Shown: in pieces, positions 1-51,210 of the stretch
Position numbering within the stretch: position 1 is the stretch's first letter
Layout of the letters: each line of letters starts with the position of its first letter
DNA from: a virus
Length of the DNA: 60,087 nt
Direction: 5' to 3' (one strand)
IMG/VR virus record: IMGVR_UViG_3300045988_173323
Position numbers and translations under genes: made by a program
Notes under the pieces: generated by a model
Database searches by the model: none
The model's input: only the letters and a program-made list of their open reading frames with translations
What the model was told of the DNA's origin: nothing

Positions 1-55
1 AACTTGTTACAATGGTATTATATCGCACCTTAGCTTAAAAGTCAAGCATTTTCGT

Positions 56-235
56 TTATTTTTTAAAATCTTTTAACTGCTGGTTTGTAGACAACTCTTT
101 AATTTTATATTTATGTAATCTGTTGTTTAAACAATAAATGCATGAACCATGGTTTCTGCACTGCATTGATATTGCTTTTGCTTTGCGGTATTCTTTTCTA
201 TGCTCTTTACCACTTTTAATTGCTTTGTCCATCAT
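56..235 (-). CDS. small Cys/His-rich protein (59 aa), absent from ORF track
   Basis: Manual translation of the minus strand gives MMDKAIKSGKEHRKEYRKAKAISMQCRNHGSCIYCLNNRLHKYKIKELSTNQQLKDFKK. An RBS (AGGTGG) lies 6 nt upstream. It sits directly downstream of the nucleotidase gene in the same operon. The C-x5-C-x2-C pattern suggests a small zinc-binding protein. Confidence 0.35.
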   Translation of the reverse strand: MMDKAIKSGKEHRKEYRKAKAISMQCRNHGSCIYCLNNRLHKYKIKELSTNQQLKDFKK

Positions 236-252
236 GTTTAACCACCTACTTT

Positions 253-726
253 CTATAAGAAATTTTTTAATACTTCCATGATATTGTTTACATCAAAACT
301 ATTTTTGCCCCACTCTTTTCTATTGCGTTCCTCGTCATCAAAAAGCCATCCCTTACAATCAACGACAGTACTTTTTGGTGTACCATAGTTTACAATTTTG
401 ATTTCATCCCATTCAATACTAGGCAAGTGTTTTTCAAGCCATGCAAGTTTTACACTTGTTACCGCCGTATTATAAGAAGCTGACCCGCTTTTACTTAACC
501 AGCTTACAATACCGATTCTATAGCCATTAGCTTGTAACTTGTGAAGCACTCTTGCGAAAGCTGAAAAATTGAAAAGCGGTTTTGCTACTTTGTATGGTGT
601 AGTATCTTCTTTTTCCAAATATGCTAACCAGTTTTCCACGCCGTAGAAATTAGCAAGTGTGCCGTCCATGTCAAAATAAATAGTTCCCTTTGTGTTCATC
701 ATTTCTTTAATTGTATTATTCATCAT
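253..726 (-). CDS. HAD-superfamily 5'(3')-deoxyribonucleotidase-like phosphatase
   Basis: The N-terminal FDMDGTLANF matches the DxDGT(L/V) HAD motif I of NT5C-type deoxyribonucleotidases. The size (157 aa) fits. The track start at 738 is a TTG; ATG-ATG at 724-726 with a GGGAAGGA RBS is more likely. Confidence 0.55.
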   Translation of the reverse strand: MMNNTIKEMMNTKGTIYFDMDGTLANFYGVENWLAYLEKEDTTPYKVAKPLFNFSAFARVLHKLQANGYRIGIVSWLSKSGSASYNTAVTSVKLAWLEKHLPSIEWDEIKIVNYGTPKSTVVDCKGWLFDDEERNRKEWGKNSFDVNNIMEVLKNFL

Positions 727-844
727 AATATCTACCAATCCTTCCCTTTTTGATTATCGCAAGTGCTTTGCGATTGACCGACCAATGATTATGTGAACCT
801 TGCTTTGTTTCTGTTTTTTAAGTTTAATGTCCTTCGACAAGTAT

Positions 845-873
845 ATATTACTACATCTTAGCGAAAAAGTCAA
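845..873 (-). promoter_or_regulatory. sigma70-like promoter (TTGACT-17-TAATAT) for the leftward nucleotidase operon
   Basis: Minus-strand reading: TTGACT, a 17-bp spacer, then TAATAT. It lies about 100 nt upstream of the ATG at 726. Confidence 0.4.
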
Positions 874-1170
874 ATTTATTTTTTATTGTGCAAAGTGATG
901 AAAATTTTACATAAAAATCATAGTATTTTTGTTAAAATGTACAAATGTAGAAAAATAATGCGGATTTAGGCAGATTTTTGTGCATTTTGCTATCTTAAAT
1001 ATCACATATTGTGTTTCTGCGTGTCAAAAAAGGTATGATTTTTTATTAAAATTTCGTCACTTTGCACAAGGTGTAGAAAATCTTAGCATTATTTTATTAA
1101 ATTTTGTACATTTTGTACACCATGTCAAAAAATGGGATTTTTTTAATTTATTTTTTGTGCAAATTGCCTA

Positions 1171-1200
1171 TTGACAAAAAGGTGCTAGATGTGGTATAAT
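1171..1200 (+). promoter_or_regulatory. near-consensus sigma70 promoter with extended -10 (TTGACA-17-TGgTATAAT), rightward
   Basis: TTGACA at 1171-1176 and TGGTATAAT at 1192-1200. No plus-strand CDS follows; the transcript would start about 1207 inside a GC hairpin. Confidence 0.55.
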
Positions 1201-1205
1201 AAAAT

Positions 1206-1227
1206 TTCGGGGTGCCCCGACCCCGAA
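1206..1227. other. GC-rich hairpin (TTCGGGG-N8-CCCCGAA) between two face-to-face promoters
   Basis: A 7-bp perfect stem with an 8-nt loop; locally >70% GC in a ~28% GC genome. It lies at +1 of the rightward promoter and about +12 to +33 of the leftward promoter. Confidence 0.5.
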
Positions 1228-1245
1228 CGGAATTCGTCTACTTCC

Positions 1246-1274
1246 ATTATAGCATACTCGAGCCACCTTGTCAA
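1246..1274 (-). promoter_or_regulatory. consensus sigma70 promoter (TTGACA-17-TATAAT), leftward, convergent with promoter 1171-1200
   Basis: Minus-strand reading: TTGACA (RC of 1269-1274), a 17-bp spacer, TATAAT (RC of 1246-1251). The -35 lies in the left arm of the 28-bp inverted repeat. Confidence 0.55.
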
Positions 1275-1339
1275 GAGAAAAAATGCACAAATTTTAGGAT
1301 AAAAATTTTGAAAAATTTGTGCATTTTTTCTCTTGACAA
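1268..1339. repeat. 28-bp perfect inverted repeat (TTGTCAAGAGAAAAAATGCACAAATTTT / reverse complement) separated by 16 bp
   Basis: Arms are at 1268-1295 and 1312-1339 and are exact reverse complements. Each arm carries a TTGACA -35 (of the divergent promoters) plus a TGCACAAA element. Confidence 0.9.
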
Positions 1340-1361
1340 AATGTCTCAACTATGCTATAAT
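1333..1361 (+). promoter_or_regulatory. consensus sigma70 promoter (TTGACA-17-TGcTATAAT), rightward, divergent from promoter 1246-1274
   Basis: TTGACA at 1333-1338 and TATAAT at 1356-1361 with TG at 1353-1354. The mirror arrangement matches the leftward promoter because of the inverted repeat. Confidence 0.55.
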
Positions 1362-1365
1362 GGAA

Positions 1366-1398
1366 GGCTCGGCTCGCATGGGCTGCTCGCGAGCCGGC
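1366..1398 (+). other. GC-rich structured leader (GGCTCGC...GCGAGCC; 10-bp palindrome GCTCGCGAGC) at +1 of the rightward promoter
   Basis: Seen directly in the sequence; about 75% GC over 33 nt. No ORF with an RBS follows. Confidence 0.4.
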
Positions 1399-1449
1399 TA
1401 TTATAACACATTTTCCGCGACTTGTCAACCCCTTTTAAAAAATTTTTTT

Positions 1450-1522
1450 ATTTTCGTCATTTTGCATAAAAATAAAATTCAGCATTTTGCACAAATTTTA
1501 TTTTCGTCATTTTGCATAAAAA
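1450..1522. repeat. two identical 23-bp direct repeats (ATTTTCGTCATTTTGCATAAAAA) exactly 50 bp apart
   Basis: Copies are at 1450-1472 and 1500-1522. A TTTTGCACA (DnaA-box-like) 9-mer lies between them at about 1486-1494. Confidence 0.85.
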
Positions 1523-1549
1523 AACAAAAGCCTAAATTATATAGGCTTT
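1514..1549 (-). terminator. rho-independent terminator ending the leftward early region
   Basis: A 7-bp stem AAAGCCT/AGGCTTT (1527-1549) is followed on the minus strand by a U-run (complement of A-rich 1516-1526). It lies 19 nt past the stop of CDS 1568-1774. Confidence 0.5.
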
Positions 1550-1567
1550 ATCATTACTCTTATTAAG

Positions 1568-1774
1568 TTATTTAGTATTACATTTACATTTTGCTTCTGT
1601 AATAATTTCTGTCTGATTAATTTCTGTATTGCTATTGTTATTAAAAAAATGGTCTGAGCCTTTTGCTAAAAAAACTATTATAGTTGCTAGAATCATTCCG
1701 ATTATAAGAAAACCAATTAGACCATTCAAATCTCTTCTAAATTCTTCATCTGTTGGGGCTTTTTCTTCTCTCAT
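1568..1774 (-). CDS. small membrane protein (68 aa, one central TM helix)
   Basis: ORF track entry; hydrophobic segment LIGFLIIGMILATIIVFLA. Confidence 0.5.
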   Translation of the reverse strand: MREEKAPTDEEFRRDLNGLIGFLIIGMILATIIVFLAKGSDHFFNNNSNTEINQTEIITEAKCKCNTK

Positions 1775-1820
1775 TTATTTTTTCCTTTTTTTAGAGTTGT
1801 GAGTTGTGAATTTCATGGAC

Positions 1821-2000
1821 TTAATTATTATTAAGTCCATGAAACTTTTTATTTTCTCGTTTCATTATTGTTTCATAAGCAATCTCTACTATTTCTTTTG
1901 AAATATTTTGATTTTCTGCTATTTTACAGAACATAATCACTGTATCATTTTCAAACCCTTTTACTTTAATTACATTATCCATCATCTCTGTTCTTGTCAT
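1821..2000 (-). CDS. small protein, paralog family A (59 aa from the MTRTEMMDNV start)
   Basis: The ORF track start at 2021 lies only about 5 nt from the predicted TSS. The ATG at 1998-2000 has an RBS (AAAGAGAGG) at correct spacing. It is paralogous to ORF 2160-2285. Confidence 0.5.
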   Translation of the reverse strand: MTRTEMMDNVIKVKGFENDTVIMFCKIAENQNISKEIVEIAYETIMKRENKKFHGLNNN

Positions 2001-2032
2001 TATTGCTTTCCTCTCTTTCATTTGATAATGTT

Positions 2033-2061
2033 ATTATACTATAAAGTCGGCTACTTGTCAA
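2033..2061 (-). promoter_or_regulatory. consensus sigma70 promoter (TTGACA-17-TATAAT), leftward, with conserved leader cassette
   Basis: Minus-strand reading: TTGACA (RC of 2056-2061), a 17-bp spacer, TATAAT (RC of 2033-2038). It is followed by the leader AACATTATCAAATGAAAGAGAGG, which is shared with the cassettes at 2921-2984 and 4366-4426. Confidence 0.55.
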
Positions 2062-2159
2062 CTACATTTTTTAAATGTTTAATTGCTTTTTCTCATTTTT
2101 ACTATCTTTTTCTTTTTTCTTTGTCGCATGAGTTTTTAAAACTCATGCGACTTTTACTA

Positions 2160-2285
2160 TTATTTTATTACTACTGCGTAAGCAAGTTCTACTGTTGTAT
2201 TTGAAACTTCACTTTCTGCTAATTTACAAAACCAGATTGTCAGTTCATCTTCAAAGCCTCTTGCTTTAATCACATTGTCCGTCAT
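2160..2285 (-). CDS. small protein, paralog family A (41 aa), absent from ORF track
   Basis: Manual translation gives MTDNVIKARGFEDELTIWFCKLAESEVSNTTVELAYAVVIK. It aligns with the core of the 1821-2000 product (MMDNVIKVKGFENDTVIMFCKIAENQNISKEIVEIAYETI). A TTGACA-17-TAATAT promoter lies upstream at about 2300-2330. Confidence 0.45.
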   Translation of the reverse strand: MTDNVIKARGFEDELTIWFCKLAESEVSNTTVELAYAVVIK

Positions 2286-2364
2286 TTCTTTTTTTACTGT
2301 TGTCTTTGACTGTTTTTATATTATCACAAAAGCTTGATTTTGTCAAGTTTTTGTGATATTTTTT

Positions 2365-2697
2365 TTACTTTTTTTGTTTAAAATTACTATGTAATTCAAT
2401 TACTTTACCGCAGTTGTCACAAGTCCAATAGTAAATTGTTCCGACATTTTTTATATAGTCTGCGTTTGCAAATCTCCATTTATTTCCGCACTCTACACAG
2501 TAGCCATTGTTCCAATTTACTTTATCGGATGATTGTTCAATTTTAATTAGCCATGTAAAAGTGCATCCTATTAAAAGAGCTAAGATAATGCCAATTACTG
2601 TTTTAATGATTCGATTTCCATTTTCATAAAAGATGTTTACCATAAATCCGCCAACGAATATTGTCATAAGAATCGTTACTAAAATTGTTCTAATCAT
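2365..2697 (-). CDS. membrane-anchored zinc-ribbon protein (110 aa)
   Basis: Two N-terminal hydrophobic helices, then C-x2-C ... C-x2-C (CVECGNKW...CDNCGKV). An RBS (GAAGGAA) lies upstream. Confidence 0.5.
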   Translation of the reverse strand: MIRTILVTILMTIFVGGFMVNIFYENGNRIIKTVIGIILALLIGCTFTWLIKIEQSSDKVNWNNGYCVECGNKWRFANADYIKNVGTIYYWTCDNCGKVIELHSNFKQKK

Positions 2698-2720
2698 TTT
2701 TTAATTCCTTCTTTCTTTAT

Positions 2721-2921
2721 TTATTTATTATTACTATCTCTCTTAACTATATTTATAATATCACATTTTTCGGTTTTTGTCAAGCCTTTTTCCTCTTTTA
2801 AAATTCTATTGATTTGGTTTTTAATATCCTTCAAATCTTCAAGACTGCAATAAACTTTATCACCCCAACCGCCTTTAATTGTATAAGGATAACTCTTATC
2901 ATCACTTTTTTCTACTGTCAT
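2721..2921 (-). CDS. hypothetical protein (66 aa from the MTVEKSDD start)
   Basis: The track start at 2984 lies inside the -35 of its own promoter. The ATG at 2919-2921 has a GAGAGAGG RBS and the conserved leader. Confidence 0.5.
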   Translation of the reverse strand: MTVEKSDDKSYPYTIKGGWGDKVYCSLEDLKDIKNQINRILKEEKGLTKTEKCDIINIVKRDSNNK

Positions 2922-2955
2922 TTTTATCAACCTCTCTCTTTCATTTGATAATGTT

Positions 2956-2984
2956 ATTATACTATAGGTCTTAACAAAAGTCAA
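2956..2984 (-). promoter_or_regulatory. consensus sigma70 promoter (TTGACT-17-TATAAT), leftward, with conserved leader cassette
   Basis: Minus-strand reading: TTGACT, a 17-bp spacer, TATAAT. The -35 is embedded in the imperfect palindrome AGGTCTTGAC-TTTT-GTTAAGACCT. Confidence 0.55.
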
Positions 2985-3002
2985 GACCTATTTTATTTTT
3001 TC

Positions 3003-3404
3003 TCAAATTTTTGTTATTCCTCTGTCTTTCAAATATTCACAAAAACTATCAGAGTCAAGCATTTTCGCAATGTCTTTCATTGAAACGTTCATTTTGTTAT
3101 ACACACAACGTACTTCAATAGGTTTAAATTTTTTTTCTGTAATAGCTGTTGATAAAGAATCTTCTACATTGCTTAATCGAACAACTCTTTTTTTAAAGAA
3201 ATTTTTTGAAATTTCAGCATTTATAAATAAACCTTTTTCAACTAAATTAATCAGTTCGTCAAAAGTGTTGATTGTAAAGTTCCTTGTCTTTGCTTCTGCT
3301 TCTTCTGGGGTAAGGTATCTTACGTGTTCCCAGATACTTGTATCAACAAAGTTTTTTCGACCCTCTATTCTGTACTTGAATCTATAATCATAAACTTCTT
3401 TCAT
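3003..3404 (-). CDS. hypothetical protein (133 aa from the MKEVYDYRF start)
   Basis: ORF track entry. The track start is a TTG; the ATG at 3402-3404 is preceded by AGAAAGAGG. Confidence 0.5.
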   Translation of the reverse strand: MKEVYDYRFKYRIEGRKNFVDTSIWEHVRYLTPEEAEAKTRNFTINTFDELINLVEKGLFINAEISKNFFKKRVVRLSNVEDSLSTAITEKKFKPIEVRCVYNKMNVSMKDIAKMLDSDSFCEYLKDRGITKI

Positions 3405-3437
3405 TTTTATCAACCTCTTTCTTTATTTTCTATATTT

Positions 3438-3466
3438 ATTATACAGTATCTATTGACTTTTGTCAA
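3438..3466 (-). promoter_or_regulatory. consensus sigma70 promoter (TTGACA-17-TATAAT), leftward
   Basis: Minus-strand reading: TTGACA (RC of 3461-3466), a 17-bp spacer, TATAAT (RC of 3438-3443). The flank has the same AAAATAGGTCTTGAC upstream element as the promoter at 2956-2984. Confidence 0.5.
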
Positions 3467-3481
3467 GACCTATTTTATTTT

Positions 3482-3742
3482 TTATTTTGGAAGGATAACC
3501 TCAGCTTCGACAGGTACTACTTTCTCAGATGCCATAAAAGCTTTCATATATCCCGTAGCAAGATTAACCGCAATGAATCTACCTTTTTGTCTTTCCAAGA
3601 AAAAACCGCTATTCCTATCAATAATCATGTACAACCCGATTTCATCAATACCACCTCTTTGACTAATACTGAAAAAAGTTTTTCCTATTGTCAAGTCATT
3701 GATGCAAATTTCTGTTGCTTTTTTATCATAGTTGATTTTCAT
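3482..3742 (-). CDS. hypothetical protein (86 aa)
   Basis: ORF track entry; an AGAGAGG RBS lies 8 nt upstream. Confidence 0.5.
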   Translation of the reverse strand: MKINYDKKATEICINDLTIGKTFFSISQRGGIDEIGLYMIIDRNSGFFLERQKGRFIAVNLATGYMKAFMASEKVVPVEAEVILPK

Positions 3743-3760
3743 TTTAATTACCTCTCTTTC

Positions 3761-3943
3761 TTATTTAATTTCTTTAAAGATACTTTCATCTGTGGCATTA
3801 CATAACTTATTATTTACGTTATACTTAGCATAAAGCCACTTTTTACAATCCCATTTTAGCGGACAATGATAACAAGTTGTAGTAAAAGCCGTGGTTTCCA
3901 TCGGAATTGCAAGAAATATCTTTTTAAGTTTTTTAGTTATCAT
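3761..3943 (-). CDS. small Cys-rich protein (60 aa; CYHCPLKWDCKKW)
   Basis: ORF track entry; an AAGGAGGAG RBS lies upstream. Confidence 0.45.
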   Translation of the reverse strand: MITKKLKKIFLAIPMETTAFTTTCYHCPLKWDCKKWLYAKYNVNNKLCNATDESIFKEIK

Positions 3944-3976
3944 ATTATTTTTTTCTCCTTCCTTTTAACTATCTTT

Positions 3977-4005
3977 ATAATACCATATTAAAATTATTTT
4001 GTCAA
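3977..4005 (-). promoter_or_regulatory. sigma70-like promoter (TTGACA-17-TATTAT), leftward
   Basis: Minus-strand reading: TTGACA (RC of 4000-4005), then a -10 with 5 of 6 matches. Confidence 0.35.
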
Positions 4006-4084
4006 TCCCCTTTTATAAAAAATTATAAAAAAGGAAGATTTTTTATCTTCCTTTTACTTTTGTTTTATTCTTGTTTTTTTATTT

Positions 4085-4231
4085 TTATCTTAATAATCTT
4101 AATAAATAGTTATTTTCATGCTCTTTCAAAAAAGCGTTAATTTCTTCTATTGTTTCAGCGTAAATCTCGCCTGTCTCAGTGTCTACAAGCATCAATTTTT
4201 TACTTCCTAAAAATAATCCTAAATCTAACAT
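4085..4231 (-). CDS. small protein (48 aa), absent from ORF track
   Basis: Manual translation gives MLDLGLFLGSKKLMLVDTETGEIYAETIEEINAFLKEHENNYLLRLLR; an RBS (AATGGAGGG) lies upstream. Confidence 0.35.
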   Translation of the reverse strand: MLDLGLFLGSKKLMLVDTETGEIYAETIEEINAFLKEHENNYLLRLLR

Positions 4232-4245
4232 ATTTAAGCCCTCCA

Positions 4246-4365
4246 TTAAGAAATTTTTACCAGATAACCGTTTGTATTTTTTTCTACTGAAAAAATGTAT
4301 TGATTATCTTTTAAGTATTTTTTTACAGTTTCAAATGCTTTTCGAGTTGTCAGTAACATTGTCAT
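4246..4365 (-). CDS. small protein (39 aa), absent from ORF track
   Basis: Manual translation gives MTMLLTTRKAFETVKKYLKDNQYIFSVEKNTNGYLVKIS. It is preceded by the conserved leader cassette (AAATGAAAGAGAGG). Confidence 0.35.
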   Translation of the reverse strand: MTMLLTTRKAFETVKKYLKDNQYIFSVEKNTNGYLVKIS

Positions 4366-4397
4366 ATCCCTTTACCTCTCTTTCATTTGATAATACT

Positions 4398-4426
4398 ATG
4401 ATACTATATTTCTTTGCTTTTGTCAA
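4398..4426 (-). promoter_or_regulatory. sigma70 promoter (TTGACA-17-TATCAT), leftward, with conserved leader cassette
   Basis: Third copy of the module ...TAT(A/C)ATAGTATTATCAAATGAAAGAGAGG. Confidence 0.5.
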
Positions 4427-4543
4427 GCATTTTAGGAAAATTTTCTAAAGATTTTTTTATGCGGATTTCCGCTGGAAAAACCTGAACTTAAGGAGATTAT
4501 AGGCGAACCGACTCCAGAACTATCAAGTTCGGGAGTCCCTTTT

Positions 4544-4720
4544 TTATTTAAGGAATGATTCTAAAGCCTTGTAGCATAAATCAGCGTTTTCTTTATCTTT
4601 TATGCTAGTACCTTTAGAAAAGTCATTCATAGCGGCTGTCAGTAGTTCTGGTACTGAAATAAATTCAAATTCAAATACCAACTGTAAAGCCGCCAATTCA
4701 TTAAGATTGACTTTTTTCAT
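4544..4720 (-). CDS. small protein (58 aa), absent from ORF track
   Basis: Manual translation gives MKKVNLNELAALQLVFEFEFISVPELLTAAMNDFSKGTSIKDKENADLCYKALESFLK; an RBS (GGAGATAAG) lies upstream. Confidence 0.4.
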   Translation of the reverse strand: MKKVNLNELAALQLVFEFEFISVPELLTAAMNDFSKGTSIKDKENADLCYKALESFLK

Positions 4721-4769
4721 CGGTTCTTTCTTATCTCCTTTTTAAATATTTTATTTTCTTTACATTATT

Positions 4770-4798
4770 ATTATATCAAATTTTTTAATAAAAATCAA
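4770..4798 (-). promoter_or_regulatory. sigma70-like promoter (TTGATT-17-TATAAT), leftward
   Basis: Seen on the minus strand upstream of ORF 4544-4720. Confidence 0.4.
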
Positions 4799-4814
4799 AA
4801 AAGATACTTTATCT

Positions 4815-4854
4815 AAACAAGCAAAGAAAAGGGCTGAACTTATTCCGCCCTTTT
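4815..4854 (-). terminator. putative rho-independent terminator after the lipoprotein-like gene
   Basis: A 7-bp stem AAAGGGC/GCCCTTT with a 12-nt loop, followed by a U-rich tract on the minus strand. Confidence 0.35.
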
Positions 4855-4866
4855 CCCGCTTCCCCG

Positions 4867-5133
4867 CTATCCTATTATCTCTGCATTTGTAATAATATCA
4901 TCTGTCACGTTGTCAGTCCCTAAAGAATCCATGTATAATTTAACTCTATCTTTTGCTTTAAAACCGTCTCCATAGAAACTCCAAACATGTCCGTAGCTAT
5001 CCATAACCACCACCTCATCATTAAAAGAGCTAATCACTTTAGCTTCTCTTGTATACTTAGTAAAGCTACCAAAACCGCAAATACTACTTAAAACTGCACT
5101 TACTGCTAATCCTAAAATCACCTTTTTCATCAT
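4867..5133 (-). CDS. secreted or lipoprotein-like small protein (88 aa from the MMKKVILG start)
   Basis: An N-terminal signal-peptide-like segment ends ...AVLSSICGF, a possible lipobox Cys. The track start is a TTG; ATG-ATG is preceded by AGAAAGAGG. Confidence 0.5.
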   Translation of the reverse strand: MMKKVILGLAVSAVLSSICGFGSFTKYTREAKVISSFNDEVVVMDSYGHVWSFYGDGFKAKDRVKLYMDSLGTDNVTDDIITNAEIIG

Positions 5134-5135
5134 AT

Positions 5136-5414
5136 CTAACTCCAACCTCTTTCTTTCTTAATCTTTTCGTATCTTTCTTTTGCTTCTTTTTCAATCTTCT
5201 TTTTGTCATACATTCTAATTTTCATTCTAGTATATCCGTCTCTTTTTAAACACCAACGTTCTGTTTTACGTTGTACTACTATTTTATCAATAGCTCTTTG
5301 CTGTACCTCTTGCTTATGAGTGTTGTAATATTTGATACTCTCAATTTCTAATAAAGTACTTATTGGTCTGTACTTATTGGTTACACTAAACAAAGTGCAT
5401 TGAATTGTTATCAT
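5136..5414 (-). CDS. basic (K/R-rich) hypothetical protein (92 aa), possibly nucleic-acid binding
   Basis: ORF track entry. An AGAGAGGTGA RBS lies upstream. It is the first gene after the promoter at 5443-5471. Confidence 0.5.
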   Translation of the reverse strand: MITIQCTLFSVTNKYRPISTLLEIESIKYYNTHKQEVQQRAIDKIVVQRKTERWCLKRDGYTRMKIRMYDKKKIEKEAKERYEKIKKERGWS

Positions 5415-5442
5415 CTTCTTATCACCTCTCTTTTCAAGTATT

Positions 5443-5471
5443 ATTATACTACCTTATTATACCATTGTCAA
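5443..5471 (-). promoter_or_regulatory. consensus sigma70 promoter (TTGACA-17-TATAAT), leftward, first promoter of the early region
   Basis: Minus-strand reading: TTGACA (RC of 5466-5471), a 17-bp spacer, TATAAT (RC of 5443-5448). Confidence 0.5.
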
Positions 5472-5489
5472 GCGTTTATTTATAGTATT

Positions 5490-5880
5490 TTTATTCGTCT
5501 TAATGCATATTTATTTATGTATATTTATTCACATTGCTAGTTAGCTTTACATATTTTATATTTATATCCTTTTATAAATTTTATAAATTAAATTATAAAA
5601 TAAAATATAATATATCAGTTATTGCATTGTTTTACTTAATATTTATTTAAGCATATCTTTCTTATTATACTATTATGTTATTCTATTATAACTATTATAA
5701 GACAAGAGTCTTACGTTGAATACACTATTATTATTATTGTAACACTTCTATAAAAGTAATTACATAATATAAAATATTATTATACTTATACTTTGTATGT
5801 ATTGTTATAGTATAATATTATTATACTGTTATTATTATTATTATTATTATCTTTCCTTTATCTTAAGCTTAATCTCTCAT
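5490..5880. repeat. about 390 bp of extreme AT-rich low-complexity non-coding DNA with an (ATT)7 microsatellite (5831-5850)
   Basis: Seen directly in the sequence. No ORF is present. A small palindrome TAAGAC-AAGA-GTCTTA lies at about 5698-5713. Confidence 0.6.
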
Positions 5881-5899
5881 TATAACACCTTTAGCTCAT

Positions 5900-6170
5900 T
5901 CTGTCAATAGACATTTTACACAATTTTTTCTTTTGATTTTCGTGCAGATTGACCATTGACATTTCTTGTCTATTGACATTTTGTACAAAAATCAAATTAT
6001 ATTTTTGTATACTTTTACCATTGACAGGACTTGTCAATAGACATAATGCACAAAATTTTCCTTGCATTTTTGTGCAATTTTACCTATTGACAAACTCATT
6101 TTAGGAAAATATCTTTGTGCATTTTTTACAAAAATTTAGCCAAAAATTTGTGCATTTTGTCTATTGACAG
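5900..6170. promoter_or_regulatory. array of at least 5 copies of the near-palindromic 12-mer TGTC(TATT/AATA)GACA flanked by TTGTGCA / TGCACAAA elements, in both orientations
   Basis: Copies are at 5903-5914, 5967-5978, 6032-6043, 6084-6092 (half site) and 6158-6169. ACCATTGACA appears at 5952 and 6017. The same motif family occurs in the 980-1340 control region. Confidence 0.6.
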
Positions 6171-6177
6171 GCTTCTC

Positions 6178-6223
6178 GGAGCGTTGCGAAAGTATACGCT
6201 CCGATGGTAGATGGCAAGCTACC
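6178..6223. other. pair of GC-rich hairpins (GGAGCG-N13-CGCTCC; GGTAG-N8-CTACC) immediately after the last repeat copy
   Basis: Seen directly in the sequence; locally about 55% GC versus a ~28% background. Confidence 0.45.
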
Positions 6224-6507
6224 AATAGCCAATAAAATTCTAATCTTCTTGCTTTATTTTAATTATTTAAAGAATTTATTTTATTAGTTTAACTCTTTCT
6301 CCTCTTTATTTAAAATAATGTGTTCAAAATCCTTCTGAACAAAAAACATATCCTCTTTGGAAAATGATTTGAAAAATTATTTGTTAGGCGGTGTTTTGTT
6401 GCTTCTTACTCAAAAGAAAAGACCAATCTACAGACCATACCCAAACATAATACCCGGGCTATATTAAAGGATTAAAATTTTTTACTTTTATAAAAAGATA
6501 GTGTTCT

Positions 6508-6645
6508 CCACAATTCTCTCTCCAAAAAAATTTTTAAATCTAAAAATTGAAGAAAATGAAGAAGAAAAAATTGAAATAATTCTCCTTCCAAAAATTTTAG
6601 AATCTAAGAATCTAAAATAAAAACTTTAAGGATTCTAAATATTAA
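6508..6645. repeat. iteron-like direct and inverted repeats (CCAAAAA(A)TTTT(T)A-AATCTAA; AGAATCTA x2; GGATTCT)
   Basis: Units are at about 6512-6545 and 6583-6612; AGAATCTAAGAATCTAAAA at 6599-6617; the inverted partner GGATTCTAAA at 6631-6640. Confidence 0.45.
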
Positions 6646-6727
6646 AAAATTTTCTTCTTCTTCTTCTTTAAAAAATGCGTGAGTGTCAAGTTAATCTCCG
6701 AAATACGTTTAAAAGCTTAGTAATCAT

Positions 6728-6952
6728 CTAAAACATCGCGTTTGCCTGTTCATAATATTTTAATTCTTGAATCCAAGCGATTGGAATTACCATTTCCGCT
6801 TTAGCGTATCTTTCTATAGCATCCATGATTTCATGTCTCCTAGTATTGATTATTTCTAATCTAAAAGTTTCACGCGGAACCAATCCTGCAACTGCAACTG
6901 CAACTGTTTTCTTTGCTTTCCCTGTTTCGTTATTCATAGTCATATTACTCAT
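6728..6952 (-). CDS. hypothetical protein (74 aa)
   Basis: ORF track entry. A strong RBS (AGGAGGAAAA) lies upstream. It is translationally coupled downstream of the DUF2493-like gene. Confidence 0.5.
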   Translation of the reverse strand: MSNMTMNNETGKAKKTVAVAVAGLVPRETFRLEIINTRRHEIMDAIERYAKAEMVIPIAWIQELKYYEQANAMF

Positions 6953-6964
6953 ATTATTTTCCTC

Positions 6965-7309
6965 CTATTTTACTATTTTAATTACTTTACCATGTTTTCC
7001 GCTCATTTTCATTTTCATAATAATCTTTCTAATTATTGCGTCTTTTCCATCATAAAAAAGTATAGCAAAATCAATATTATCTACCATTTTCTGAATTAAT
7101 TTATCTATATTGCGATCAAATATATATTCAATAGGAGCACCATTATTTTCTGCCCATATTTTTCCAATAGACTCCGAGAGCTTCTTCTCCGTATTCCCGC
7201 AAACAACAGTAAACAAGTAACACTGCGTTTCACAGATAAAATCTTCCATAGCTGCGGAGACTAGGCGATTATCCGCGAAACCGCGACTTCCAAGAATACT
7301 AATTCTCAT
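6965..7309 (-). CDS. DUF2493-like (SLOG/LOG-type Rossmann) phage protein
   Basis: The pattern MRISILGSRGFAD...TVVCG...W...P...LFYDGKD...GK.VKIV recalls the DUF2493 signature (MRVxVxGSRxF.D...VV.GGA...W...P...FPGG..GT...G..V). The call is by recall only. Confidence 0.45.
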   Translation of the reverse strand: MRISILGSRGFADNRLVSAAMEDFICETQCYLFTVVCGNTEKKLSESIGKIWAENNGAPIEYIFDRNIDKLIQKMVDNIDFAILFYDGKDAIIRKIIMKMKMSGKHGKVIKIVK

Positions 7310-7390: not shown

Positions 7391-7419
7391 TTGACAAAAA
7401 AATTTTTTTGTGGTATAAT
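7391..7419 (+). promoter_or_regulatory. near-consensus sigma70 promoter with extended -10 (TTGACA-17-TGgTATAAT) driving the rightward structural operon
   Basis: TTGACA at 7391-7396 and TGGTATAAT at 7411-7419. The RBS AAAGGAGAAATT lies before the ATG at 7447. The region is divergent from gene 6965-7309. Confidence 0.6.
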
Positions 7420-7446
7420 ATAATTGTAAATTAGAAAGGAGAAATT

Positions 7447-8604
7447 ATGACACCAATAATAATAGAAGATGAAGCTTTTGAGGAGAATATTTTAGAAGAA
7501 GAAAAAACAACAGAAAAACAAATCAAAGAAGAAAATATACAAACTACTATTAAATTAGATTATTCTTTAGAGACTCCTGAAGAGCGGAATGAATTAGTTA
7601 AAAAAATTATAAATAATACTCCTTCTGAGCAATTAACACCTAGATATTTAGAAATATTGTCAGATTACATTATTTTTGCTATGGATAAACAAGAGCGGAA
7701 ACAAAAGCAAATATTAACTGATAATCACATGGTCACAGTTAACAAAAGAGAAACTTCTTTTGAAGGATTAGTTGGTCGCTTAGAGAATGGCGAAGATGGC
7801 ATTTATAATATGATTGCTAATGATAAGAATATTATCTTTACACCTAAATTTCAAATAACTCAACAAGATATTGCGGAAATCCCCGAGTTAAAACAACTTG
7901 TAGACGCGATTGCGGAAGTTGAAAAAGCTGAGAAAAAAGCAGTTGGTAAAAAGAAATTTTTATTAAAAAAGCAACTTATTGCTATGAGACAAGATCAATA
8001 TGTAATTAGAAGTGCATATAAGCCGCCAATTTATTGTATGAACGCAATTAAAAGTTTTAGCAAAATTGATTTTGATGAAAATGTTTCTATTAGCGGAGAT
8101 GATGAAATTGAAGATAATAGCTTAGTTTCTTTTTTTAATCCTAAGCACGTATCTGCGTTATTATGTAACTATTCCCGCCTAAAAGAAGATGCATGGGGAA
8201 AATTCTATAGTGATTCATACTTTTTAATGGAAGATTTAGATACATTAATAGAAAAGACTTTAAGAGACAGCTATCCAATGTATTATGACCTCTTGATTTA
8301 TAAAATAGATGGAAAACAAAATCTTGAAATTCAAAGCCTATTGAATCAAAAGCATAATGTAAAACATTCAGTGGAATATATATCATCTTTGTGGCGGAAT
8401 AAGATACCTAAGCTATTGTCAGAGCAAGCTCAGGAAGACTACTTAATTTGGTATTATACGACTCAGAAGAAGGGAAAATGGAAAAAATGTTCCCGCTGTG
8501 GGGAAATCAAATTAGCTCATAATAAATTTTTTTCAAAGAATAAGACAAGCAAAGATCATTTTTACAGTATATGTAAATGTTGTCGAAATAAGAAAAATAA
8601 GTAA
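7447..8604 (+). CDS. hypothetical acidic protein with a C-terminal C-x2-C...C-x2-C zinc ribbon (385 aa)
   Basis: ORF track entry. The C-terminus reads CSRCGEIKLAHNKFF...ICKCCRNKKNK. It is the first gene of the late operon. Confidence 0.55.
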   Translation: MTPIIIEDEAFEENILEEEKTTEKQIKEENIQTTIKLDYSLETPEERNELVKKIINNTPSEQLTPRYLEILSDYIIFAMDKQERKQKQILTDNHMVTVNKRETSFEGLVGRLENGEDGIYNMIANDKNIIFTPKFQITQQDIAEIPELKQLVDAIAEVEKAEKKAVGKKKFLLKKQLIAMRQDQYVIRSAYKPPIYCMNAIKSFSKIDFDENVSISGDDEIEDNSLVSFFNPKHVSALLCNYSRLKEDAWGKFYSDSYFLMEDLDTLIEKTLRDSYPMYYDLLIYKIDGKQNLEIQSLLNQKHNVKHSVEYISSLWRNKIPKLLSEQAQEDYLIWYYTTQKKGKWKKCSRCGEIKLAHNKFFSKNKTSKDHFYSICKCCRNKKNK

Positions 8605-15670: not shown

Positions 15671-15685
15671 GGAGGATTATAAGAG

Positions 15686-16714
15686 ATGGCTTTAAGTAGA
15701 AAAGATTTATTTACATTAGCTAAAACCGTAGCAAAAGCTAATCCTTCTTCTCAGGTTGCTTATTCTTTCGGTAATGAAAAATTTAGCTATTCAGATTTAA
15801 ACGATACATTGAGAAACGAATTAAGAGAAATCGCGGGAACATACGCACTTTATCGCGAAAATAAGAATACAATTTTTGCTCTTATGGAAGAGACTATTGA
15901 CGATATTCTTCCAAAAAAAGTATTAGAGCAGTATGGTCAATTTGCTGAAATTAAGACATTTAGCCAGGGAGACAAACCTGTATTCACTCAGAGAATTACG
16001 GTTGCTTCAAAGAGACGTGCAAAACAATTTATTACAAAAGTTGGATTAGCAGGTATTTATGAAGTATTCAAACTGGATGGTAAATCTTATGAAGTTCCTA
16101 CAAGTGCTTTTGGTGGAGCTGCTCAGATTGGATTTGAAGAGTTCTTAGATGGACGTATAGATTTCGCAGATGTTCTTGACATTGTTATGGAAGGATTAGA
16201 CGAAAGCGTTTATCTTGAAATTGAAAGAGCTTTGAAAGGTGCTGTAACTAATTTACAAGCTAATAATAAAACCACCCAAGGTTCTTTTATAGAAGCTGAA
16301 ATGGATAAATTGTTAGCTGTAGCAGATTCTTATGGACAAGCTACTATTTATTGTACGTATGAATTCGCAGCTACCATGGTACCTGCTGAAGGTTGGGTTT
16401 CAGACGCTATGAAAGACCAGAAATGGAATAATGGTTATTTAGCAAATTATAAAGGACATAGAGTAATTGTTTTACCTCAGTCTTATGAAGATGAAACTAA
16501 TAGTAAAAAAGTTATCGACCCATCTTATGCATGGATTATTCCTACTGGCGGAAATGATAAACCTGTAAAAATTGCTCTTGAAGGACAGACTATCGTTAGA
16601 GAAATTGAAAATGCTGATATGTCAAGAGAAATTCAGGTTTACAAGAAAATGGGTGTTGCTGCAATTATTACTAATAATATTTGCGTATATAGAAACACTG
16701 GTTTGACTCAATAA
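15686..16714 (+). CDS. major capsid protein (HK97-fold type)
   Basis: 342 aa; position in the operon, composition, and a strong RBS (AAGGAGGATT). Confidence 0.65.
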   Translation: MALSRKDLFTLAKTVAKANPSSQVAYSFGNEKFSYSDLNDTLRNELREIAGTYALYRENKNTIFALMEETIDDILPKKVLEQYGQFAEIKTFSQGDKPVFTQRITVASKRRAKQFITKVGLAGIYEVFKLDGKSYEVPTSAFGGAAQIGFEEFLDGRIDFADVLDIVMEGLDESVYLEIERALKGAVTNLQANNKTTQGSFIEAEMDKLLAVADSYGQATIYCTYEFAATMVPAEGWVSDAMKDQKWNNGYLANYKGHRVIVLPQSYEDETNSKKVIDPSYAWIIPTGGNDKPVKIALEGQTIVREIENADMSREIQVYKKMGVAAIITNNICVYRNTGLTQ

Positions 16715-49583: not shown

Positions 49584-50129
49584 ATGGCAGAAATAGTATC
49601 TCCAAAAACAATAGTGGAAAATACGAGCGAAGATATAATGATTAAGATGATGGAGCAAAATTTAGAAGGAGTAATGTTTCATTTATTTGAAACAGACTTA
49701 TATGATTTATTAAAATTACCTGGATTTAAGGCTTTACATCATCACCAATCACAAGAAGAGACTGAAACTCTTGAACTTTTAAAACATAAATATATTGAGA
49801 AATATAAAAAATTTCCAATCTTAAAAACAAAAAGTATTGACCGTTGGGAAGAAAACGAGGATTTATATAAAGATTTATCTGAAGAAAAAATTATTTCTTT
49901 AGTGAAAGAATCTATGAAACAATACGCTGATTGGGAAAGCGAAGTTTTAGAACATCTATTACAATGGAAAAGAAATGTAGAAGATAGAAAGATCGTGCAT
50001 AAAATGATAGAAGATGTCATGCAAGAGATAAAGCATATAGAAACATTAATGGACATCTTAGAAGAACATGATTATAATTATCAATGTATCTGTGAAATCT
50101 CTGATTACCTTAGTCGTAGATATAAATAA
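49584..50129 (+). CDS. hypothetical helical protein (181 aa)
   Basis: ORF track entry; an RBS (AAGGAGG) is present. Confidence 0.45.
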   Translation: MAEIVSPKTIVENTSEDIMIKMMEQNLEGVMFHLFETDLYDLLKLPGFKALHHHQSQEETETLELLKHKYIEKYKKFPILKTKSIDRWEENEDLYKDLSEEKIISLVKESMKQYADWESEVLEHLLQWKRNVEDRKIVHKMIEDVMQEIKHIETLMDILEEHDYNYQCICEISDYLSRRYK

Positions 50130-50130
50130 T

Positions 50131-50158
50131 GGGAGCTATTTAGCTCCCATATTTTTTT
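50131..50158. terminator. bidirectional rho-independent terminator at the junction of the convergent late (+) and replication (-) modules
   Basis: Stem GGGAGCTA/TAGCTCCC followed by T7 on the plus strand. It overlaps the ruvC stop on the minus strand. Confidence 0.55.
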
Positions 50159-50651
50159 ATTCCCAAATAATTTTATTATTTAAAAGAATATATGCATAAC
50201 CTATTCCTATAGCATCTGCTTCATCATCATTTACTTTAATATTAAATTTTTCTTCTACAAATCGAATATCTTCAAGCTTTAATTCTTCTCTTTTGATTCC
50301 TTTTCCTGTGCGGATTCCACATGCAGAACGCCATTCACTTGGGTATAAATATTCAATTTTTATTTGTGGAAAATTATCATGTACAGTAAAAGCTATCGCT
50401 GCTTGAAGCCACATCAAAACACGATGAGTTTGAATATTTTGCAATCCATTTTCTGGTCTAACTTCCTCCAAAATAATTTTATCTATAGAATATTTCTTTA
50501 AAATTTCAATTAGTCCTTCTATCATTTTTTTTATTCTTGCGATAACATCTTTTGAAGAAGCTGTAATACAAGTATGATAAGTTAGTTTATTGTTTTCAAA
50601 AATAGCGAATCCGCTACTCTTGGAACTTGCGTCTATTGATAATATGTTCAT
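50157..50651 (-). CDS. ruvC: RuvC-family Holliday junction resolvase
   Basis: The N-terminal ILSIDASSKSSGFAIF (RuvC ILGIDPGSRVTGYGV), DKIILEEV (DYFAIEQVF) and C-terminal DDEADAIGIGYAY (ADAADALAIA) match the catalytic acidic residues of RuvC. Confidence 0.7.
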   Translation of the reverse strand: MNILSIDASSKSSGFAIFENNKLTYHTCITASSKDVIARIKKMIEGLIEILKKYSIDKIILEEVRPENGLQNIQTHRVLMWLQAAIAFTVHDNFPQIKIEYLYPSEWRSACGIRTGKGIKREELKLEDIRFVEEKFNIKVNDDEADAIGIGYAYILLNNKIIWE

Positions 50652-50679
50652 ATTTATTCTCCTTTATTTTTCTATCTAA

Positions 50680-50708
50680 ATTATAACATATTATTCTAAT
50701 TCTGTCAA
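50680..50708 (-). promoter_or_regulatory. consensus sigma70 promoter (TTGACA-17-TATAAT) for ruvC
   Basis: Minus-strand reading: TTGACA (RC of 50703-50708), a 17-bp spacer, TATAAT (RC of 50680-50685), then the RBS AAAGGAGAA. Confidence 0.5.
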
Positions 50709-50720
50709 ATTTTATTTAAA

Positions 50721-50759
50721 CAAAAAAAATAGAGTATATAAAATATATTATATACTCTA
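50721..50759 (-). terminator. rho-independent terminator after the dUTPase gene
   Basis: Stem TAGAGTATATA/TATATACTCTA followed on the minus strand by U8. Confidence 0.55.
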
Positions 50760-50766
50760 CTTAATA

Positions 50767-51210
50767 TTATTTAGAACCGGTAGAACCAAAGCCTCCTGTC
50801 CCTCTATCGGTATTCGTGAGAGAGTCAGCTTCTTCGAAAATAACTGGAATGAAAGGCATAATAATCAGTTGTGCTATTCTTTCTCCAGCCTCTACTACCA
50901 TTGTTTTATCAGAATCATTATGAACGGCTACAATATACTCACCCCGGTAGTCTGAGTCACAAACGCCAACGCAGTTAGCTGGACGTAATCCTTTTTTCGT
51001 AGCCAATCCGCTTCTCGCGAAAATGGCTCCAAAAGTATTTTCCTCTAATTCAATAGCAAGTCCCGTACCTATTTTTACAGTTTTGTGAGGAGGAATTTCT
51101 ATATCATATGCGGTCGCCGCGTATAAATCATAGCCTGCGGCATACTCACTTCCGCGAGTAGGAATTTTCGCTAAATCATTTAAACGCTTTATTTTTATTT
51201 TATTTGCCAT
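50767..51210 (-). CDS. dut: dUTP diphosphatase (dUTPase)
   Basis: All five dUTPase motifs are present: AGYDL, RSGLA, GVCDSDYRGE, GERIAQL and RGTGGFGSTG. Confidence 0.9.
   Translation of the reverse strand: MANKIKIKRLNDLAKIPTRGSEYAAGYDLYAATAYDIEIPPHKTVKIGTGLAIELEENTFGAIFARSGLATKKGLRPANCVGVCDSDYRGEYIVAVHNDSDKTMVVEAGERIAQLIIMPFIPVIFEEADSLTNTDRGTGGFGSTGSK

Follow-up and report, generated by a model that had tools for sequence, protein, structure and literature searches.

Facing promoter pairs across GC-rich hairpins in a non-coding phage tract: a possible control hub for early transcription

Strong promoters that converge over a short overlap are known from pR/pL of phage 186, Pe/Pc of P2 and Pant/Psar of P22. 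The outcome in these switches depends on competition and collision between polymerases and on a short antisense RNA, with nearby operators in control. A different device, a strong promoter followed immediately by a terminator, is represented by PR'-tR' of lambda, the source of the 6S RNA, and such units await an antiterminator. In par of pAD1, a type I toxin-antitoxin locus, RNAs from convergent promoters end at one shared hairpin. Transcription-dependent phage origins, such as oriF and oriG of T4 and the primary origin of T7, share a strong, ORF-less promoter of host type. In the Ceduovirus c2, the first early promoters flank a non-coding origin whose core varies in sequence and whose PE1 transcript is untranslated yet essential (PMC7150918). 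In the central control region of phi29, the promoters A2c, A2b and A3 are combined with sites for p4, p6 and Spo0A, the sites of the phage regulators being interleaved with 0A boxes; these boxes, of consensus TGTCGAA, have a role at both the early promoters and the origins of phi29 (PMC2731898).

The window analysed here is a stretch of 60,087 nucleotides from the IMG/VR virus record IMGVR_UViG_3300045988_173323, in which an earlier note had singled out positions 740-1560 as a promoter-dense, repeat-rich, non-coding control region. This description holds. The longest stop-to-stop frame overlapping the region has 84 codons; frames reach at most 97 codons with TAG or TGA read as sense, and with TAA read as sense a 155-codon frame (1077-1541) appears, which still does not span it. 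Gene callers placed no gene in the region on three of the four ENA contigs. The indels that distinguish relatives within the tract measure 11, 13, about 25 and about 26 nt and are not multiples of three, so that a hidden or recoded gene, which the note had named among the findings that would overturn its reading, was rejected on both frame and indel evidence. The late genes of this phage read through in the standard code, and TAG is recoded in phAss-1, a distant relative. The latter is the nearest named phage, with a portal identity of 39.5%; its first 50 kb lack the module described below, and no similarity to the region was found among deposited phages. A comparison with Rfam, also suggested at the outset, was carried out with the Rfam 15 covariance models together with a tRNA/tmRNA search, and no family matched the region at or near the gathering score; the only hits were sub-threshold matches to microRNA precursors, caused by a 55-nt inverted repeat. 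On the left, downstream of the tract, lies the gene of a HAD/NT5C nucleotidase (726-253), for which a weak candidate promoter can be proposed from the sequence at 840-868 on the minus strand (TTGACT-17-TAATAT, 9/12), with TGTCGAA at its predicted start (833-839). The right-hand edge is formed by the intrinsic terminator of the upstream early gene 1774-1568, located by a terminator scan at 1527-1549 on the minus strand.

The earlier claim of at least four sigma70 promoters on both strands was borne out by four perfect 12/12 matches of the sigma-70/sigmaA type, all with a TG-extended -10 element, at 1171-1200 and 1333-1361 on the plus strand and at 1274-1246 and 1428-1400 on the minus strand. 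The whole window holds 11 perfect promoters where 0.05 would be expected under a first-order Markov model, and four of them are packed into 258 bp of the tract. What the note lacked is the organising principle of the locus: P1 faces P2 and P3 faces P4, and each such pair brackets one hairpin, with 45 nt and 38 nt, respectively, between the -10 elements. Start sites, placed throughout from the positions of the -10 elements, would lie about 25-33 bp apart within a pair. The antisense-type P1 (1155-1200 with its upstream box TTGTGCA-N9-CTATTGACA, plus strand, TTGACA-18-TATAAT) has a predicted start at about 1205-1208 and leads through AAAATTTC into hairpin 1; it has no variable column among four lineages. 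Its partner P2 (1246-1296, minus strand) points in the sense direction and also has a TTGTGCA box upstream. The antisense-type P3 (1317-1361, plus strand), again with an upstream TTGTGCA box, leads through GGAAGG into hairpin 2, and the sense-direction P4 (1400-1428, minus strand) is invariant in relatives; its -10 element abuts hairpin 2, which puts the predicted start inside the stem. As had been stated, the rightward promoters P1 and P3 have no plus-strand gene to express, and they are the only perfect plus-strand promoters of the leftward early block besides that of the sigma-factor gene at 7391.

Both GC-rich hairpins of the first reading are present. Hairpin 1 (1206-1227) is an 8-bp stem of TTCGGGGT and ACCCCGAA, found by terminator scan and folding, and is invariant in relatives. 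On the minus strand (1227-1206) it is followed by ATTTTATTAT and scores as an intrinsic terminator for P2 transcripts, so the P2 RNA is predicted to be about 40-45 nt long and to end at this hairpin; for the RNAs of the other promoters no such clear end is seen. Thus the suggestion of short structured RNAs gains some support, from a canonical terminator about 40 nt after P2 and from rightward promoters that face leftward ones. Hairpin 2 (1366-1399) has a core stem of CGGCTCGC (1370-1377) and GCGAGCCG (1389-1396); it has no U-tract on either strand and so, unlike hairpin 1 on the minus strand, does not qualify as an intrinsic terminator. Its core is inverted in one relative (L002), and its loop is deleted in two others (L019 and L164). 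In a census of its orientation across viral and metagenome collections, the lineages were too few for a flip rate. Compared with dinucleotide shuffles the folds are only modestly more stable (z of -1.9 for hairpin 1 and -1.8 for hairpin 2), and individual module hairpins set against GC-matched shuffles likewise show a modest gain only (z from -0.9 to -4.2); part of the stability signal is plain GC-richness. A Chi-like protective oligomer was considered and set aside, given that no GC-rich k-mer is common to 18 cores and the leader GAAATTTCG is the only thing they share.

The perfect 28-bp inverted repeat reported previously was found at 1268-1295 and 1312-1339, and it is the core of a longer repeat of 55 nt (1241-1295 and 1312-1366, 91% complementary) with an AT-rich centre of 16 nt. 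All five mismatches of the longer repeat fall in spacers between -35 and -10 elements, and the repeat is therefore best described as P2 and P3 placed back to back. A long hairpin RNA or cruciform is an unlikely target of selection here, as relatives break the repeat with insertions: an indel hot spot at 1277/1278, within P2, carries 11 nt in L001, L002 and L019 and about 26 nt in L162. The 11-nt insertion lies upstream of P2 and lengthens the spacing from box to -35 by about one helical turn.

Evidence of selection comes from the recurrence of the module. Across the window, the same phage beyond its left edge and relatives in IMG/VR and ENA, 27 distinct face-to-face pairs with a GC-rich core were collected, and the clade that bears them consists of uncultivated gut and rumen phages. 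A third copy in the same phage lies 3.1 kb beyond the left edge of the window (L159:13111-13204), giving at least three modules within about 4 kb here, and four occur within 13.7 kb in the relative L110. The gap from -10 to -10 is mostly 36-38 bp. Hexamers, this gap and the polarity relative to the early genes are conserved across modules; spacers and hairpin sequences are not. The polarity is constant, in that the antisense promoter has a leader of 8-9 nt (GGAAATTTCG) and, on the sense side, the promoter directly adjoins the stem. With 15 modules aligned by position, 76.9% of cells pair, a share that none of 500 shuffles reaches (61% after shuffling) and that drops to 35-41% once the partner columns are displaced by sliding. 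Both members have changed in six of the eight pairs, and the covariation score is 0.332, against 0.118 for shuffled and at most 0.124 for slid columns. Among close relatives, P1, hairpin 1 and P4 have no variable columns, compared with 7.6% in the neighbouring HAD coding sequence. As judged from these alignments, it is shown that both promoters of each pair are under selection, with hexamers and TG kept and spacers left free, that selection maintains the hairpin as a structure whose position is fixed, and that the polarity of the module relative to the early genes is conserved.

These observations weigh on the alternative that the tract has no dedicated function and that recombination in a region rich in promoters merely left behind duplicates of early promoters and terminators in decay. 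In favour of this account, the early region is saturated with promoter cassettes so nearly identical that they match one another by BLAST, and the tract has undergone indels and an inversion. However, architecture, spacing and polarity are kept in distant relatives whose cores are non-homologous, the stems covary, and the promoter cores stay invariant while the flanking coding sequence varies. This account is already disfavoured, and we regard it as very improbable.

The most likely reading is that the tract is a control hub for early transcription, a non-coding, cis-acting element whose promoters yield very short RNAs and compete for RNA polymerase; we assign it a probability of about 0.4 and consider a replication origin less likely. 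The hub would sit in an early region dependent on host RNA polymerase and would be built from two copies of a module, in which two consensus sigmaA promoters fire at each other across a GC-rich hairpin of 25-30 bp amid iteron arrays. With start sites about 25-33 bp apart, polymerase footprints should overlap, so that one promoter of a pair would be occupied at a time. Whichever promoter fires would produce only a very short RNA, and in many relatives the antisense RNA would end at the hairpin plus ATTTTA, the complement of the facing -10 element. Since only such RNAs would be made, the module would act through occupancy, competition and head-on interference, as "transcription to nowhere", rather than by way of any gene product. 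The winning promoter would be set by a factor that binds the iterons and is encoded by the phage or by the host (such as Spo0A), and this choice would gate or insulate transcription into the downstream operon from the HAD/NT5C nucleotidase onward; the module would also block antisense or read-through traffic. Several points stand against the hub. With both promoters of a pair leading nowhere, the switch has no obvious target; transcripts from P2 are expected to stop short of the HAD gene, and a weak promoter of its own seems to serve that gene; as hairpin 2 lacks a U-tract, transcription from P3 and P4 may continue past it; none of the early genes was recognised as coding for a DNA-binding protein; and iteron arrays beside gene-less promoters are also a classic signature of an origin. 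Hairpin promoters of the N4 type, serving a virion polymerase, were rejected as a further explanation, since sigmaA promoters serve the early genes and the protein of 2843 aa is a tape measure protein.

The direct repeats reported 50 bp apart were recovered at 1446-1477 and 1496-1527, with the first 27 nt identical, and belong to a three-copy array with a 25-bp period (1449, 1474 and 1499; 1449-1519, minus strand) of the 18-nt iteron TTRTGCAAAATGNYGAA. In L001, L002 and L019 about 25-26 nt are deleted, leaving two copies. Another copy, TTGTGCAAAGTGATGAAA (886-903, plus strand), is inverted with respect to the others, matches the pattern without mismatch and is an arm of a 31-nt inverted repeat whose other arm is 1039-1069; within the latter lies TTGTGCAAAGTGACGAAA (1052-1069, minus strand), invariant in the same three relatives. 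In total, five or six 18-nt copies are found between 740 and 1560, and six of the eight matches of the window fall within the tract against 0.5 expected. Across the clade there are 49 distinct copies, with a conserved extent of 18-26 nt, TTGTGCAAARTGNCGAA(ATTTCGGGA), and the form TTGTGCAAAGTGACGAAATTT.

The form of the iteron permits the reading that it consists of two tandem 0A-like boxes (TGTGCAA-AR-TGNCGAA) and that the tract is a silencing array responsive to the host, in which Spo0A~P of a spore-forming host would shut the early hub, as in phi29; such a role is compatible with the hub explanation. Relatives of this phage group are predicted to infect Clostridia (PMC10607447). In its right half the iteron reads TGNCGAA, where N is A, C or T across the clade. 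The window has 18 TGNCGAA sites, of which four fall in this tract of 820 bp, including one at the start predicted for the HAD promoter. Yet the best-conserved half, TTGTGCA, is not a 0A box (at most 5/7, and 5/7 for the left half TGTGCAA), the halves are separated by 2 bp where 3 bp are reported for phi29 and Nf, and TGWCGAAAA is not enriched across the window. Altogether, Spo0A silencing appears quite improbable.

Elements with TTGTGCA had been noticed both in the tract and in an array at 5.9-6.2 kb, and this correspondence is real: in the early region, four intergenic sites carry clusters of the box. In about 100 of 992 distinct strong promoters of the clade, the box keeps a constant distance from the -35 element, in phase with the DNA helix; it starts 16-17 nt ahead of that element in 84 of the 992, with secondary peaks at 26-27, 58-59 and 76 nt. 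Because it is phased to -35 elements, the box behaves as the site of a transcription factor and not of an initiator, which points to a putative transcription factor site. DnaA boxes were also considered and, from inspection by eye, rejected: TTGTGCA(A/T) fits TTWTNCACA poorly, there is only one perfect match to the relaxed form, and the conserved flank is on the wrong side. When viral contigs were scanned for TTGTGCA-N7-9-CTATTGACA, mostly single chance matches were obtained, along with a few family members carrying extra modules.

The same arrays raise the question of an origin, one of several, activated by transcription through an R-loop or primer. Host polymerases firing towards each other into the GC core would open the duplex or leave RNAs that prime both leading strands, and the iterons would bind an initiator or helicase loader for the DnaB/DnaE replisome of the phage. 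The gene-less promoters, the three-copy array and AT-rich flanks suit this proposal. Iteron-type origins call for at least three repeated sites, and the array offers three, plus two more copies elsewhere; transcription-primed origins carry a strong early promoter with neither ORF nor ribosome-binding site downstream, which is also the situation here. The phage encodes DnaB, a split DnaE and RecJ-like and PIF1-like proteins, the examined stretch of its replication block is gene-dense with no obvious origin, and face-to-face starts have the geometry that would be expected of two leading-strand starts in a bubble. The c2 origin offers a precedent (PMC7150918). Against this, the module is present in several copies, many ordinary promoters that drive genes have the TTGTGCA box in phase with their -35 element, and a hairpin with a U-rich tail predicts release of the RNA rather than a persistent hybrid. 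Iteron-type origins occupy one or a few loci, in or by an initiator gene; here the boxes cluster at four intergenic sites, and no initiator gene is adjacent, nor was one recognised among the neighbours. The turns in GC skew, at about 7.3 kb and about 50 kb, go together with the direction of transcription and lie outside the tract. We therefore find an origin doubtful. It is as a unique origin that the idea put in the earlier note has been weakened, by the multi-copy modules, the four box clusters and the phasing of the box. The overall interpretation of that note is thus supported in part, its description being sound and its short-RNA proposal having some backing.

A further possibility is that ultra-short hairpin RNAs of about 30-75 nt, from three or four different hairpins per genome, act in trans, for example in regulation or as decoys that engage an RNA-binding host defence or nuclease. 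Very high output is to be expected of consensus promoters, the stem shows covariation, and one subfamily keeps the loop CCAGGRCCGTGG although the stems differ. In the L003 group the GC hairpin is followed by a canonical terminator that belongs to the antisense RNA, which resembles a true small-RNA gene of about 75 nt. Leader and loop evolve fastest among close relatives, as would be expected in an arms race; the 18-nt leader of the predicted P2 RNA (1228-1245, minus strand), delimited in the alignment of relatives, is a substitution hot spot, with six of 17 columns variable in 1229-1245. However, this leader has no second copy or complement elsewhere in the window, no Rfam family is matched, and an exact-match search of 185,579 bacterial and archaeal genomes found no counterpart of hairpin 1 (23 nt), which is thus no copy of a host CRISPR repeat or small RNA. 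At this level of exact matches, an RNA anti-CRISPR in which hairpin 1 mimics a solitary CRISPR repeat was rejected as well. Moreover, the stems are almost purely Watson-Crick and have similar energies on both strands, so that neither strand is favoured, and the inversion of the hairpin-2 core in L002 changed nothing else, thereby swapping the loop sequence of each strand. Action in trans is, on balance, unlikely.

To our knowledge, a conserved unit in which two perfect promoters point at each other across about 37 bp, without a gene for either to transcribe, is not among the described regulatory devices of phages, and literature searches returned nothing like a facing promoter pair over a hairpin without a gene. 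It is conceivable, and we hold it only tentatively and as rather doubtful, that the module, present three or four times in the early region of phages from a widespread clade, is an undescribed class of phage cis-element acting as a bidirectional origin primed by host polymerase or as a factory of ultra-short hairpin RNAs that disarm a host system. If so, it would be a "gene" whose product is the act of transcription itself or an RNA of 30-45 nt, and it would show how large Firmicute phages start replication or counter defence. A switch based on polymerase competition would instead offer temporal control by a design that is both compact and new. The index of a public assembly collection lists the neighbouring HAD protein, with its exact sequence, in 566 blocks, which suggests that this uncultivated gut phage is abundant. 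The module has a simple, portable architecture made of consensus elements, and it could serve as a synthetic insulator or toggle.

Each known system shares part of this design. Like the switches of 186, P2 and P22, the tract has facing promoters with overlapping transcripts (P1/P2 and P3/P4). Unlike in those temperate phages, neither promoter drives a gene, both strands being free of ORFs; the overlap spans no more than about 25-33 bp, the gap holds a covarying GC hairpin, the unit is multi-copy, and the parts of this phage examined contain no lysogeny genes. P2 with hairpin 1, and the sense promoters of the L003 group, resemble PR'-tR' of lambda in reaching an intrinsic terminator within about 30-45 nt, whereas no Q-like protein or pause element was identified and, in contrast to lambda, a second consensus promoter faces the first. 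As in par of pAD1, two convergent promoters surround one hairpin, but no toxin ORF fits into the 38-45 nt between the -10 elements. The hub of phi29, a lytic Firmicute phage, is likewise a short non-coding tract with several sigmaA promoters on both strands and repeated sites; its promoters, which have no sequence similarity to these, are tandem or divergent and drive the early and late operons, while those described here converge across a hairpin. With the PE1-T origin of c2 (PMC7150918) the locus shares a non-coding early tract, a strong ORF-less promoter and a variable core of conserved function. In the origins of c2, T4 and T7 the promoters are single or arranged in tandem, with structured transcripts of greater length or an unwinding element; the promoters of this phage are convergent, the predicted RNAs tiny and the unit repeated several times.

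The tract at 740-1560 is free of credible genes, as the earlier note had proposed: its longest stop-to-stop frame reaches 84 codons, no frame spans it even with TAG, TGA or TAA recoded as sense, and independent gene callers predicted nothing in it on three of four contigs. Where that note counted at least four near-perfect sigma70 promoters on both strands, a scan gives four perfect ones (TTGACA and TATAAT 17 or 18 nt apart), each extended by a TG at the -10: P1 (1171-1200, plus), P2 (1274-1246, minus), P3 (1333-1361, plus) and P4 (1428-1400, minus). The whole window holds 11 perfect promoters against 0.05 expected. At the core of a 55-nt inverted repeat, 91% complementary, lies the perfect 28-bp one reported before; the five mismatches of the longer repeat are all within promoter spacers, and it thus represents P2 and P3 placed back to back. 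The two GC-rich hairpins were located at 1206-1227 (hairpin 1) and 1366-1399 (hairpin 2).

The window (GC ~30%) derives from a large tailed phage. Minus-strand blocks (1-7300 and 50100-60087) carry genes for small early proteins and for replication and nucleotide functions, including a HAD/NT5C-like nucleotidase (726-253, minus), NrdD, NrdG, dUTPase and guanylate kinase, while the plus-strand block (7447-50129) opens with a phage sigma factor and continues with terminase, portal and a tape measure protein of 2843 aa. This sigma factor (phrog_5767) and a perfect, TG-extended promoter of host type that belongs to it lie at 7391-8604, divergent from the leftward early genes, which implies a programme in which host sigmaA serves early transcription and the phage sigma factor takes over late. 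The nucleotide-metabolism genes lie at 253-726, 50767-51210 and 52136-55393 (deoxypyrimidine 5'-nucleotidase-like HAD, dUTPase, guanylate kinase and anaerobic NrdD/NrdG), and the pairing of nucleotidase with dUTPase hints at dNTP-pool manipulation or a modified base. On the minus strand, a GIY-YIG endonuclease gene that stands alone (56920-57828) interrupts a DnaE-type polymerase (55365-60070), separating its N-terminal part (57986-60070), which shows PHP, alpha and finger domains on longer contigs, from a C-terminal HHH_6 fragment (55365-56462). DnaB, RecJ-like and PIF1-like genes follow directly past the window's right edge. The exact HAD protein occurs in 566 indexed blocks of a public assembly collection, on contigs of up to ~139 kb. 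The closest named phage is phAss-1 (portal identity 39.5%), whose group is predicted to infect Clostridia; a similarity search of the tract found no match among deposited phages.

The four promoters form two face-to-face pairs, P1/P2 converging on hairpin 1 and P3/P4 on hairpin 2, with gaps of 45 and 38 nt between their -10 elements, so that the inferred start sites are just ~25-33 bp apart. On the minus strand ATTTTATTAT comes after hairpin 1, which a terminator scan flagged as an intrinsic terminator; a P2 RNA of ~40-45 nt is predicted from this. Neither strand of hairpin 2 carries a U-tract. The whole tract is kept in three close relatives (L001, L002 and L019; 92-93% identity), in which P1, hairpin 1 and P4 are invariant. 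The share of variable columns is 7.6% in the HAD coding sequence, 35% in the P2 leader (1229-1245) and still higher in the hairpin-2 core. An indel hot spot at 1277/1278, directly upstream of the P2 -35, carries an 11-nt T/A-rich insertion in these relatives and a ~26-nt A/T tract in another, L162.

A third module of this type, two facing promoters bracketing a GC hairpin, is located 3.1 kb left of the window on L159, a contig of the same phage (L159:13111-13204; also L001:8782-8875), where a further box cluster separates two early operons. From IMG/VR and ENA relatives 27 distinct modules were collected, up to four within 13.7 kb. Their hexamers and TG are conserved but not the spacers, the -10 elements mostly lie 36-38 bp apart, and the GC-rich cores, although non-homologous, each fold into one hairpin in a constant position. 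The polarity is also constant: the promoter reading against the early genes has an 8-9 nt GGAAATTTCG leader ahead of the stem, and the sense promoter adjoins the stem, which places its predicted start inside it. In many relatives the sense -10 is TAAAAT, so the antisense RNA carries the hairpin and then ATTTTA. About 5 kb left of the window (L159:15634-16060), a lone box-type consensus promoter (15683-15711) with a GC hairpin directly after it precedes ~350 nt of non-coding DNA before the next gene's own promoter, and resembles half a module or a gene for a non-coding RNA.

Against GC-matched shuffles the cores scored z -0.9 to -4.2, negative in all 16 tested, but the gain is individually modest and GC-richness therefore accounts for part of the hairpin signal. 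A positional alignment of 15 modules, with 500 column shuffles and slid partner columns as controls, gives stronger support for hairpin selection than single-core folding: 76.9% of cells pair, against 61% in shuffles (0/500 as high) and 35-41% with partners slid, six of eight stem pairs show changes on both sides, and the covariation score is 0.332 (0.118 shuffled, at most 0.124 slid). This covariation and the conserved geometry disfavour the view that the modules are a neutral by-product of promoter duplication. Since the stem pairs are almost all Watson-Crick and folding energies are similar on both strands, neither strand is favoured, and the hairpin might work in both RNAs or at the DNA level. 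In L002 the 18-bp hairpin-2 core (1372-1389; flanks GGCTCG/CGAGCC) is the exact reverse complement of that in its near-identical sister L001 with no other change (L002:5295-5390), and in L019 (L019:5308-5390) and L164 a 13-bp loop deletion leaves a perfect palindrome; these variants look like flip/flop hairpin-loop inversion and suggest hairpin extrusion in DNA. Such an exact inversion speaks against trans-acting hairpin RNAs, as do hairpin 1, for which 185,579 bacterial and archaeal genomes gave no exact match, and the Rfam search proposed in the earlier note, which returned no match for the tract. That reading, to which a loop motif CCAGGRCCGTGG retained on different stems and an antisense unit with its own terminator in the L003 group lend some weight, is considered unlikely.

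The direct repeats 50 bp apart described previously are part of an array in which an 18-nt iteron occurs three times with a period of 25 bp; further copies lie at 1052-1069 and, inverted, at 886-903. Six of eight matches in the window lie inside the tract (0.5 expected). The clade consensus is TTTTGTGCAAA(A/G)TGNCGAA(A/T)TT(C/T)GGGA (49 distinct copies). Its left half, TTGTGCA, confirmed as common to the tract and the 5.9-6.2 kb array, clusters at four intergenic early-region sites of this phage and begins 16-17 nt before the -35 in 84 of 992 distinct strong clade promoters, with secondary peaks at 26-27, 58-59 and 76 nt; the 11-nt insertion upstream of P2 lengthens this spacing by about one helical turn. 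Such fixed, helically phased placement is expected of a transcription factor or alpha-subunit contact site, not of a replication initiator site. The right half, TGNCGAA, matches the Spo0A 0A box in its loose form. The strict consensus of that box is TGTCGAA (PMC2731898). A link to Spo0A may serve as a lead only, and against it the better conserved left half is no 0A box and the spacing differs. Closing the early block, a 1.1-kb non-coding tract (L159:16461-17613) has one strongly C+T-rich strand; after it comes a long hairpin between direct repeats of 37 nt, which contain the iteron variant TTGCAAAATGTCGAAAAA with a perfect TGTCGAA.

A second cluster (5900-6235) packs seven CYATTGACA and several TTGTGCA boxes within ~270 bp, most without a usable -10, and ends in a ~60-nt Y-shaped GC-rich structure (6170-6232; fold z -3.4) with no Rfam or tRNA match. 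Downstream of a perfect promoter at 5907 (minus), and predicted to be transcribed from it, ~400 bp of very AT-rich non-coding DNA (5480-5880; 24.5% GC in the 5001-6000 bin) that contains (ATT)n runs and numerous TATAAT-like words precedes the next gene (5414). An unwinding role is conceivable for this DNA and would make that cluster no worse a candidate for the origin than 740-1560. A transcription-activated replication origin fits the gene-less promoters, the iterons and the AT-rich flanks of the tract, and the Ceduovirus c2 origin is a good precedent for it: there an untranslated early transcript, situated between the first early promoters, is required, and the core is sequence-variable (PMC7150918). 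Every element listed in the earlier note is present, and its interpretation stands in part. The origin becomes a rival, possible though rather unlikely, because the modules are multi-copy, the boxes are phased to promoters and the design is terminator-like.

We tentatively favour, at a probability of about 0.4, a cis-acting control hub of early transcription. Selection on the hexamers shows that both promoters of a pair should bind polymerase, and with starts 25-33 bp apart their footprints are inferred to overlap. Very short RNAs are the predicted products of P2 and many antisense promoters. The module would act through polymerase occupancy, promoter competition and head-on interference, the outcome being set by a box-binding factor. 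This reading is weakened by the two outputs of a pair, neither of which leads to a gene, and by the early genes, among which no candidate regulator was recognised. A literature search found no comparable device, and the module, with its facing promoters of consensus type, its covarying GC hairpin and its phased boxes, seems to be a so far undescribed form of known convergent-promoter or promoter-to-nowhere devices.
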